Shown piece by piece: positions 4,462 to 6,094 of a stretch of DNA of 6,883 nucleotides. The notes beneath the pieces were generated by a model. The model was not told where the DNA came from. It did no database searches and worked only from the letters and a program-made list of their open reading frames with translations. The first letter of the stretch is position 1. Each line of letters opens with the position of its first letter. The translations under genes and the position numbers were made by a program. Origin of the DNA: a virus (lineage: Duplodnaviria; Heunggongvirae; Uroviricota; Caudoviricetes); IMG/VR virus record IMGVR_UViG_2713896907_000005, positions 1 to 6,883 of that record. The stretch is one strand, 5' to 3'.

Positions 4462-4547
4462 CACGAAATAAACGTCCGACAAGCACAGCAGCCAATACCT
4501 AAAAACAATATTTTGCCGAATATTCAGTTCGTTATAAAGGTTAAGCA

Positions 4548-5126
4548 TTGAGTATACCAACTGTCTCTCTATGGAATGAGATGGGGTTAATCCCCCCAAT
4601 AGACGAGGCTGATCCTACAAGCCATACTCGTTCCCCATACAAAATGGATATAGTACGCTTTGTTAGTACTTTTTCGCTTAGCCCTGCAAGGATTAAAATC
4701 CTTAAGGGTTTTCTTAACTTTCGTGTTTCACTCACTCAAGCAGGGCTAGTTGAAGGTTTTCAGTGGGTAGATGGAAGCTTCACAGAACATATTGAACTTA
4801 TTGAAAAAAGGCCACCGAATGATGTCGATGTTGTGACCTTTTTTCAATTCAGTAATGGCGATAATGATGCAATCGTAATCGGTAGAAAGCCAGAGCTATT
4901 TGATCATGATTTTGTTAAGAAGGAGTTTTTCGTAGATTCCTACTTCCAAGAACTTAATCTACCAAGTCATGAGCTTGTTGAAATGACTGTATATTGGTAC
5001 AGTATGTGGGCACATAGACGCGATCTGTCGTGGAAGGGATTTATCCAAATCCCGTTAAACCCACAACTTGATGTTGTGGCAATGACTATACTTAATTCGG
5101 CTACTACTGAGGGGGTCAAACAATGA
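4548..5126 (+). CDS. Hypothetical protein A, first gene of an uncharacterised two-gene module at the rexA position; weak nucleotidyltransferase-like motif
   Basis: 192-aa ORF. Start assigned to TTG at 4548 with aagg SD (4537-4540); the in-frame ATG at 4581 is an alternative. Stop overlaps the gene B start (ATGA at 5123-5126). AT-rich relative to flanking genes. Contains GS-x14-DVDVV, reminiscent of the GS...DxD nucleotidyltransferase signature; this is weak. Confidence 0.7.
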   Translation: MSIPTVSLWNEMGLIPPIDEADPTSHTRSPYKMDIVRFVSTFSLSPARIKILKGFLNFRVSLTQAGLVEGFQWVDGSFTEHIELIEKRPPNDVDVVTFFQFSNGDNDAIVIGRKPELFDHDFVKKEFFVDSYFQELNLPSHELVEMTVYWYSMWAHRRDLSWKGFIQIPLNPQLDVVAMTILNSATTEGVKQ

Positions 5127-6052
5127 ATCGTAATGATTATGTTTTCGCTCTCAGTGAGCGCGAGCAAATAAGTAATCTATTAAAAAATATGCCAACAAGT
5201 CATTCTATTAGCCGAAAAAGCTTAGAAGACCGTCTGGAGAAAGTTGAGCGATTAATTTCACAAGCTGACGTTCGAGAACATGAACCTACGCATGCTGTGT
5301 TAACTTTTAGAGGCCCAACAGTAGTTGGCACGCATGGCATTTCAGCAGTATTTGGAACAAAAGCTATATCTTGTTTTAATGATGCAATAGCTTACTTGGC
5401 AACCTCTTTCAATGGCCCACTTCCTGCATCAGGCAAGATACCAAACATAGAAAATAATCATCTCATGATTACCGCGTCAGCCCGTGGTTCTTTCGGATTC
5501 GTACTTGAAGAGTTTAGACCTGATGCTCCTCTTGAATTCGATGAAGAAACCCCAGTAGCAAAAGCTATTAATAAGGCCAGAAAAATATTTCAGGCAAGCT
5601 TGGATAATGATGATGAAGAATTGTCTGATGCTATAGAAAACTTAGACTCTCGGGCCTTAGATAAAATCAGAGCATTCATTCATTATCTGCATGAAAATAA
5701 AACAGTTTTTACACTTAAAAGCCAAGGTTTTAGCATCGTTTTTAGAGAGCCAAAACAGCTTGAAGCTGTATATCAACATCTCAGCAATGATAACATTCAG
5801 CAGGAAAAAATTATTGAGAACGTTATATTTTTGGGAACTCTTCCTAACAAGCGCCAATGTGAATTTATAGTTTTAGGTAACACTGATATCAGAACCGCTA
5901 GCATTGACAAAGCTGTAGATGACCCAGATATTATAAACAAGCACTTAGGAAGCGTTGCAACAGCCACGTTCCTGAAAAAAACTGTTGGTAAGGGCAAGCC
6001 CAGATACACTCTGGTTTCTCGACCTCAATGGGATATTAAATCAATCGATTAG
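5123..6052 (+). CDS. Hypothetical protein B, second gene of the uncharacterised two-gene module at the rexB position
   Basis: 309-aa ORF, ATG at 5123 overlapping the gene A stop. AT-rich codon usage. No similarity I can recognise and no obvious transmembrane segment. Followed 15 nt later by an intrinsic terminator. Confidence 0.75.
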   Translation: MNRNDYVFALSEREQISNLLKNMPTSHSISRKSLEDRLEKVERLISQADVREHEPTHAVLTFRGPTVVGTHGISAVFGTKAISCFNDAIAYLATSFNGPLPASGKIPNIENNHLMITASARGSFGFVLEEFRPDAPLEFDEETPVAKAINKARKIFQASLDNDDEELSDAIENLDSRALDKIRAFIHYLHENKTVFTLKSQGFSIVFREPKQLEAVYQHLSNDNIQQEKIIENVIFLGTLPNKRQCEFIVLGNTDIRTASIDKAVDDPDIINKHLGSVATATFLKKTVGKGKPRYTLVSRPQWDIKSID

Positions 6053-6066
6053 AATGAGCCCCTTCA

Positions 6067-6094
6067 GCCCGGCCTCCGCGCCGGGTTTTCTTTT
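6067..6094 (+). terminator. Intrinsic terminator ending the cI operon (tImm-like)
   Basis: GC-rich stem cccggc (6068-6073) / gccggg (6080-6085) followed by ttttctttt (6086-6094). Confidence 0.75.

Follow-up and report, generated by a model that had tools for sequence, protein, structure and literature searches.

A predicted nucleotidyltransferase and its obligate OB-fold partner occupy the rexAB slot of a lambdoid prophage: a candidate defence module

We analyzed 6,883 nucleotides of a Caudoviricetes virus (IMG/VR record IMGVR_UViG_2713896907_000005, positions 1 to 6,883; hereafter the window), which comprise the immunity and replication region of a lambdoid prophage. Between the stop codon of the cI repressor gene and a terminator homologous to lambda tImm, where lambda carries rexA and rexB, which exclude T4 rII mutants and other phages, the window carries two different genes, which we call A and B. 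Gene A is predicted to encode a minimal nucleotidyltransferase (NTase) of the Pol-beta fold, and gene B encodes a protein of no named family that is modelled with a C-terminal OB fold. The two genes are an obligate and mobile unit that recurs across bacteria, methanogenic archaea and viral contigs. It is, on balance, somewhat probable that the pair is an NTase-based defence or toxin-antitoxin (TA)-like module.

The replacement of rexAB is exact. Positions 3433-4461 of the window, which include cro, OR and cI, align to lambda 38255-37227 with 91.4% identity, and the match stops at the cI stop codon. Lambda homology returns at position 6068, which corresponds to lambda 35824, the first base past the rexB stop codon, and extends through tImm, OL and pL to position 6326. 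Since the breakpoints fall at the cI stop and at the base after the rexB stop, positions 4462-6067 are a clean swap of rexA-rexB, with 1,606 bp here and 1,402 bp in lambda. An earlier reading of the window, made from its letters and open reading frames (ORFs) and referred to here as the sequence-only reading, had proposed this slot for two coupled genes of 192 and 309 aa, with an ATGA overlap at 5123-5126, between the cI stop at 4461 and a tImm-like terminator. All these elements were recovered at the positions given, and the pair is AT-richer than its flanks, as had also been claimed (G+C content of 0.34-0.40, compared to 0.42-0.46 for cI and 0.50-0.56 for the replication genes). In both phages the slot hosts two genes that are co-oriented with cI. 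The proteins show no sequence kinship with RexA or RexB, again in line with the earlier claim: the hhalign probabilities are below 1% (0.09% and 0.13%, the latter for the profile of A against RexB). Moreover, RexB is a polytopic inner-membrane protein, whereas A is an NTase and neither A nor B contains a membrane segment.

The slot itself behaves as a site of exchangeable cargo, as became clear from the survey of related prophages that the sequence-only reading had recommended. Phages ev017 and 2B8 share the flanks of the window, and their homology breaks at 4461/4471 and returns at 6315. In this interval, ev017 carries a pair resembling PDC-M24, a PADLOC candidate, composed of a protein of 185 aa and a DUF1828 protein of 250 aa (locus L002, 4622-5928), while 2B8 carries a protein with an NYN domain (locus L003, 4035-4892). 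Both are candidates for further defence cargo of the cI-to-pL slot. No signal was obtained when gene A was aligned with hhalign to ev017 gp52, the first cargo gene in the same slot. The interval between cI and N is a documented mosaic hotspot, which hosts rexAB in lambda and the abortive infection gene bstA in the Salmonella prophage BTP1 (PMC8585504). The earlier description of the cI-proximal slot as a site for accessory defence genes stands. Escherichia coli CE10 shares positions 3051-6820 of the window with 99.1% identity and has different replication genes, which indicates that the immunity region and the A-B pair travel together. Overall, the pair is found with 100% identity in 8 out of 5,426 complete E. 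coli genomes, and rexAB in 99.

Gene A (4548-5126, plus strand; 192 aa) matches Pfam DUF6932 (E-value 2e-26) and the family phrog_9194, whose function is unknown. Its protein contains the motif G76-S77-x14-D92-V-D94, followed by D130, and these residues are invariant in 43 out of 43 homologues and in 75 out of 75 independent loci. This arrangement corresponds to the NTase motif hG[GS]-x(9-13)-Dh[DE]h with its third carboxylate, with a spacing one residue beyond the textbook range. In the AlphaFold model of A (pLDDT 90.7), the GS pair ends the strand at residues 70-76, DxD begins the strand at 93-99 and D130 lies in the strand at 129-135. The model contains the alpha-beta-alpha-beta-alpha-beta core of NTases, and the motif residues map to beta1/alpha2, beta2 and beta3. 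The structural neighbours of A are ANT and MNT enzymes, several MNT structures among them, and none of the top 60 is a MenT protein. Compared to MNT, A is longer by approximately 45 N-terminal and 60 C-terminal residues. We define A as an NTase by fold and motif rather than by family, because sequence methods return no named NTase family: DUF6932 is the only match in Pfam, and hhalign comparison with two classical MNT proteins from the fetched loci gives a probability below 1%. Fold and motif together indicate a minimal Pol-beta-type NTase with predicted activity. The profile search of the PDB with A returned pentatricopeptide-repeat matches, which we discarded as spurious because they were driven by a 'DVVT' stretch.

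We placed the start of A at the TTG codon at 4548 rather than at the ATG at 4581, because residues W9-N10, which lie upstream of Met12, are conserved among homologues; AAGG is found 7 nt ahead of the TTG. Gene callers begin A at the downstream ATG (183 aa) in the Rac-like prophages of Salmonella and Klebsiella (loci L085-L092), where A and B overlap by 11 nt instead of 4. The choice of the A start thus differs by annotation.

Gene B (5123-6052, plus strand; 309 aa) starts within the stop codon of A. The sequence-only reading had recognized no named family for either gene. This is correct for B, which has no match in Pfam, NCBIfam or PADLOC and belongs only to phrog_18731, of unknown function, while for A it has to be revised in view of DUF6932 and of a weak PADLOC match to PDC-M63A. 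From the N- to the C-terminus, the model of B (pLDDT 86.2) shows a helical hairpin, a small alpha/beta core, a middle part of acidic helices and an OB fold (residues approximately 225-300). A Foldseek search of the PDB with this model returned nothing at an E-value of 0.001 or lower, and profile searches of the PDB returned nothing either, so that B has no solved relative. The weak Foldseek matches of the OB domain include OB domains linked to tRNA and translation, namely the anticodon-binding domain of LysRS and eIF5A. An exhaustive search with a hidden Markov model of B retrieved 1,466 representative proteins (clusters at 50% identity), and nearly all of the 150 best are around 300 aa long, with no obvious fusions. 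The conserved residues are mostly structural Gly, Phe and Pro, together with an invariant hairpin tip in the alpha/beta core (G122-S-F-G-F126) and the polar residues R37, T61, T117, R177 and R244. No catalytic signature is apparent in alignments of 74 sequences and of 75 loci. The same alignments contain no conserved histidine and no conserved Rx4-6H motif, and Pfam gives no HEPN hit. We also considered B as a membrane effector and ruled it out, since it has no hydrophobic segment (highest 19-residue Kyte-Doolittle mean of 1.16). The corresponding value for A is 1.13, and A likewise contains no membrane segment.

A and B are obligately linked. We counted the linkage in the 80 best genomic loci and in 80 IMG/VR contigs scanned with the A alignment. 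B follows A immediately and in the same orientation in 77 of the genomic loci, the exceptions being two contig ends and one B remnant, and in 79 of the viral contigs, the exception being a contig that ends just past A. A precedes B in all 156 paired loci. The remnant (locus L076, 6611-6817, in Cupriavidus sp. D384) is a short stretch of B that follows A (E-value 0.004), and its locus is the only one of the 80 genomic ones where the pair appears to have decayed. In the window, the junction (5109-5126, plus strand) has the features of translational coupling, with a Shine-Dalgarno sequence GAGGGGG (5109-5115) within the end of A, followed by ATGA (5123-5126), in which the stop and start codons overlap. 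Among the 77 homologous loci, this overlap of 4 nt is likewise the most frequent junction. The distances between A proteins and between B proteins correlate (r = 0.80, 75 loci), and B diverges only slightly faster than A.

The genomic A-B loci span approximately 12 bacterial phyla and methanogenic archaea. By scanning one genome per species with a sequence pattern, we found an A relative in at least 583 species, which include Enterobacterales, Burkholderiales, Planctomycetota, Myxococcota, Chlorobiota, Desulfobacterota and Clostridiales and, among the archaea, Methanothrix and Methanomicrobiaceae. Neither gene was found in 50,697 deposited phage genomes, searched at both nucleotide and protein level, and the search of plasmids returned five weak matches to B only. 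In the literature covered, there is no mention of DUF6932 or of either protein by RefSeq accession or locus tag, and no defence pair of an NTase and an OB-fold protein is described; a screen of E. coli prophage defences (Brenes & Laub 2025), which may include the pair, lies outside this coverage. An NTase-containing two-gene cargo in a prophage defence slot is of a familiar kind, and what is new is the B family and its pairing with A.

The pair recurs in two genomic contexts. The first is that of prophage repressors. In Salmonella, Klebsiella, Citrobacter, Atlantibacter, Superficieibacter and Photorhabdus, it lies directly 3' of a Rac-type repressor that is unrelated to lambda cI. On the opposite strand, the repressor is faced by a YdaS, YdaT or CII-like gene and then by the replication gene O; recE lies downstream of the pair in five of the six genera, and recT was seen in Salmonella. 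Of 58 distinct viral contigs, 50 have an upstream neighbour in the same orientation as the pair; the upstream neighbour contains HTH_3 in 23 contigs and Peptidase_S24 in 16. This position is comparable to that of BstA, whose gene is also located directly 3' of a prophage repressor and has its own terminator (PMC8585504), although BstA is unrelated and consists of one protein, with a DNA-encoded element for self-immunity. The second context is that of restriction-modification (R-M) operons. Type I R-M genes occur within 6 kb of the pair in 23 out of 80 genomic loci, and the R-M-linked loci with typed flanks have the co-oriented order hsdM-hsdS-A-B-hsdR. The pair is therein located between hsdS and hsdR, which is also the position of prrC in the prr locus and a known site of PrrC-type back-up modules. 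Unlike A-B, PrrC is one protein, an anticodon nuclease that bears an ABC-ATPase domain, and it has no homology to A or B. The recurrence in two independent contexts suggests a role in conflict or defence that does not depend on lambda biology. The sequence-only reading had proposed a defence or TA candidate on position alone; this status now gains support from the obligate spread of the pair, from its repressor and R-M contexts and from an NTase fold that is common in TA and defence systems.

Further neighbours of the pair are YhcG/DUF1016, YgjP, Abi_2, Abi_C, Macro and classical MNT genes. In particular, classical MNT ORFs with the GS-x10-DxD motif lie within a few kb of the pair on viral contigs (loci L166-L168, 6963-7271, plus strand) and in locus L065 (3350-3685, plus strand), where Type I R-M genes flank A-B. 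The proximity of MNT ORFs to A-B suggests clustering of TA-like cargo.

Among the systems that we compared with A-B, the type VII TA system HepT/MntA (HEPN/MNT) offers the analogy for our preferred mechanism. MntA is usually encoded first in its operon. In both systems a small Pol-beta NTase gene comes first and overlaps the gene of its partner, the motif is of the GS...DxD type (GSX14DXD in A and GSX10DXD in MntA), and the distribution comprises bacteria, archaea and R-M loci. They differ in that B has an OB fold rather than HEPN and that A is undetected by sequence comparison with MNT. Through its GSX10DXD motif, MntA polyadenylylates its partner toxin HepT (PMC7641770). By analogy, the NTase might neutralise B by nucleotidylylation, a type VII-like arrangement that we put forward tentatively. 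We favor it because A neighbours MNT and ANT, A is always the first gene, and B, with its several conserved domains, has more the look of an effector or sensor than of a labile antitoxin.

The roles could also be reversed, and we regard this as unlikely. In such a case, A would be a toxic NTase effector similar to MenT or AbiEii, and B a sensor or antitoxin that holds A or recruits its substrate through the OB fold, and that releases or activates A upon a phage cue. MenT and AbiEii add nucleotides to tRNA acceptor ends. They are DUF1814 proteins, encoded second, downstream of their antitoxin. The only recognisable catalytic centre of the module resides in A, B has no conserved catalytic residues, and the OB domain has weak matches to domains linked to tRNA and translation, all of which speak for a toxic A. 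In contrast to the characterised NTase toxins, A is the upstream gene throughout the paired loci, it has no match to DUF1814 or AbiEii in Pfam or PADLOC, and its structural neighbours are ANT and MNT. In addition, B does not look like a typical labile antitoxin: it exceeds A in size, its 150 best relatives are of uniform length, and it diverges only slightly faster.

A third arrangement, in which A makes a signal or gating ligand in a Hailong- or CBASS-like manner, appears to us quite unlikely. The OB fold of B would bind this product and switch when the phage destroys it or blocks its synthesis. The association of an NTase with an OB-fold partner agrees with this possibility, as do the tyrosines of A that could prime synthesis (Y149, which is invariant, and Y31, which is nearly so). 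The precedent is Hailong, where the NTase HalB acts as a negative regulator and its oligodeoxyadenylate product, a single-stranded DNA, keeps HalA closed (PMC13434031). Hailong is also composed of two genes, and negative control of the partner by the NTase is what we propose for A-B. However, HalA spans the membrane as an ion channel. B is a soluble protein, with neither a membrane segment nor a known effector domain, and its OB domain is not markedly basic. Moreover, A has no match in PADLOC to CD-NTases or other signalling synthases, and indeed nothing beyond PDC-M63A (E-value 2e-10) in the 2023 release, whose inclusion of Hailong models is unconfirmed.

The match to PDC-M63A extends to all of the 43 A homologues tested, and it is weak throughout (best E-value 1e-16). 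PDC-M63AB is also prophage-borne, in E. coli NILS69. For B the outcome differs: neither it nor any of five diverse homologues gives a match to a PDC-M63B model, and PADLOC would therefore not call the A-B pair. PDC-M63A is related to A as a sister NTase whose partner is not the same.

The layout of the operon is in keeping with transcription of the pair together with cI. The cI gene (3748-4461, plus strand) encodes a repressor of the lambda-immunity type with HTH_3 and Peptidase_S24 domains, identical to lambda cI in 224 of 237 aa. It lies upstream of A-B in the same operon, whose presumed promoters are pRM and pRE. The 86-nt spacer between cI and A (4462-4547, plus strand) has no homology to lambda and contains no terminator-like site. 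Its folding (minimum free energy of -9.5 kcal/mol, z = +1.57 compared to shuffled sequences) is weaker than that of shuffled sequence. Because the spacer is unstructured and has no terminator, transcription is expected to read through from cI into A. At the other end, the operon closes with an intrinsic terminator homologous to lambda tImm (6066-6094, plus strand), formed by a hairpin (6066-6087; -14.6 kcal/mol) with an 8-bp G+C-rich stem (6 G-C pairs), then UUUUCUUUU, which provides the T-run. We searched for an internal promoter of A-B and found consensus-like sites within cI (4330-4357) and late in B. We rejected them, as such sites are not enriched (9 found, compared to 6.6 +/- 2.5 expected in shuffled sequence). 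The Rfam scan of the whole window returned no RNA families.

Our preferred model, with A as regulator and B as effector, can be put together as follows. A-B would be a self-contained and horizontally mobile conflict module of the abortive-infection or TA kind, transcribed with cI from pRM in the lysogen, as rexA and rexB are, and substituting for RexAB. A would be active as a minimal NTase, and B would be its obligate partner, made in stoichiometric amounts. A would use nucleoside triphosphates (NTPs) to hold B inactive. The likeliest route would be nucleotidylylation of B, with the invariant Ser123 in the G-S-F-G-F hairpin tip as candidate site; less likely, A would make a nucleotide or oligonucleotide ligand that is bound by the OB fold. 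The trigger might be an infection that disturbs A, the NTP supply or host gene expression. The OB fold of the unmodified B would then engage a target, either nucleic acid or protein, and growth or phage replication would stop. In its broadest form, the model predicts a very widespread and so far undescribed anti-phage system in which a soluble, non-enzymatic OB-fold effector is kept in check by a DUF6932 NTase, through serine nucleotidylylation or an NTase-made ligand, and which serves both as a functional replacement of RexAB and as a back-up guard of Type I R-M systems. We consider this generalization doubtful.

Several observations weigh against the model. Gene order is weak evidence as to which partner regulates the other. 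The OB domain is weakly basic, with a mean net charge of +0.5, and the binding of nucleic acids by B is therefore not assured. The toxicity of B is a conjecture, given that B has no HEPN motif, membrane segment or enzymatic signature. In approximately 70% of the non-viral loci, no neighbour within 6 kb is recognisable as a defence gene. Finally, the deletion of PDC-M63AB in its native E. coli NILS69 had no effect on 10 phages; that system shares only a distant A-type protein with A-B, and the result is a caution rather than a refutation. The defence function of A-B is thus one that we infer, and the pair is a candidate only. The last two observations would also be accounted for if the pair were not anti-phage at all, and acted instead as a plain addiction module (post-segregational killing) or as lysogenic-conversion or regulatory cargo that helps the prophage or the host, as many morons that occupy this slot would allow. 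We judge this improbable, because the pair is recurrently inserted into Type I R-M operons between hsdS and hsdR, where PrrC is also located, because it is repeatedly located behind unrelated prophage repressors, and because its patchy distribution across domains is typical of defence genes.

In the rest of the window, ninB, an extra small ORF, ren, P, O, cII and cro lie on the minus strand, whereas cI, A, B, the terminator, pL and N lie on the plus strand. The right edge of the variable slot is marked by OL/pL (6262-6310, plus strand), which shares 75% identity with lambda OL/pL and contains the promoter TTGACG-17-GATACT at 6279-6307. It is followed by the gene of the N antiterminator (ORF 6425-6769, plus strand; Pfam N_peptide, E-value 2e-32, matching from residue 23). 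Positions 6327-6802, which comprise the N region, have no nucleotide homology to lambda N. As cI and OL/pL are lambda-like and the N region is not, the window joins a lambda-type immunity with a different N/nut specificity. A hairpin at 6368-6380, with a 5-bp stem and a 3-nt loop, might be the boxB of nutL. On the other side of cI, positions 3074-3432, which include the beginning of cII and the intergenic region between cro and cII, where nutR and tR1 are positioned, are not homologous to lambda and are common to ev017 and 2B8. This segment is a further mosaic joint within the immunity region. The extra small ORF (696-1022, minus strand; 108 aa) is inserted between ren and ninB. It encodes a hydrophobic N-terminal segment (MADWQIPIIILAGASLVAGFILL...) and has no Pfam match. 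Positions 237-1028 are not homologous to ev017, and the matches to 2B8 and lambda likewise begin only at 1029. This ORF may be a second small cargo gene (moron) of the prophage.

The A-B pair is a well-supported candidate for defence that can be tested cheaply. If active, it would represent a new two-gene immune or TA-like system, and it would give a function to Pfam DUF6932 and to the unnamed B family, which comprises around 1,500 clusters at 50% identity. It would also connect two settings of one cargo, the operons of prophage repressors and those of Type I R-M systems, and the idea that the pair guards R-M systems is directly testable, since the same pair occurs with and without hsd neighbours. 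The window further offers a like-for-like comparison with the classic but poorly understood RexAB, in which only the cargo differs, against a shared immunity region, promoter and terminator. Even without a phage phenotype, the obligate association of an NTase and an OB-fold protein, which extends from Enterobacterales to methanogens, poses a biochemical question worth settling.

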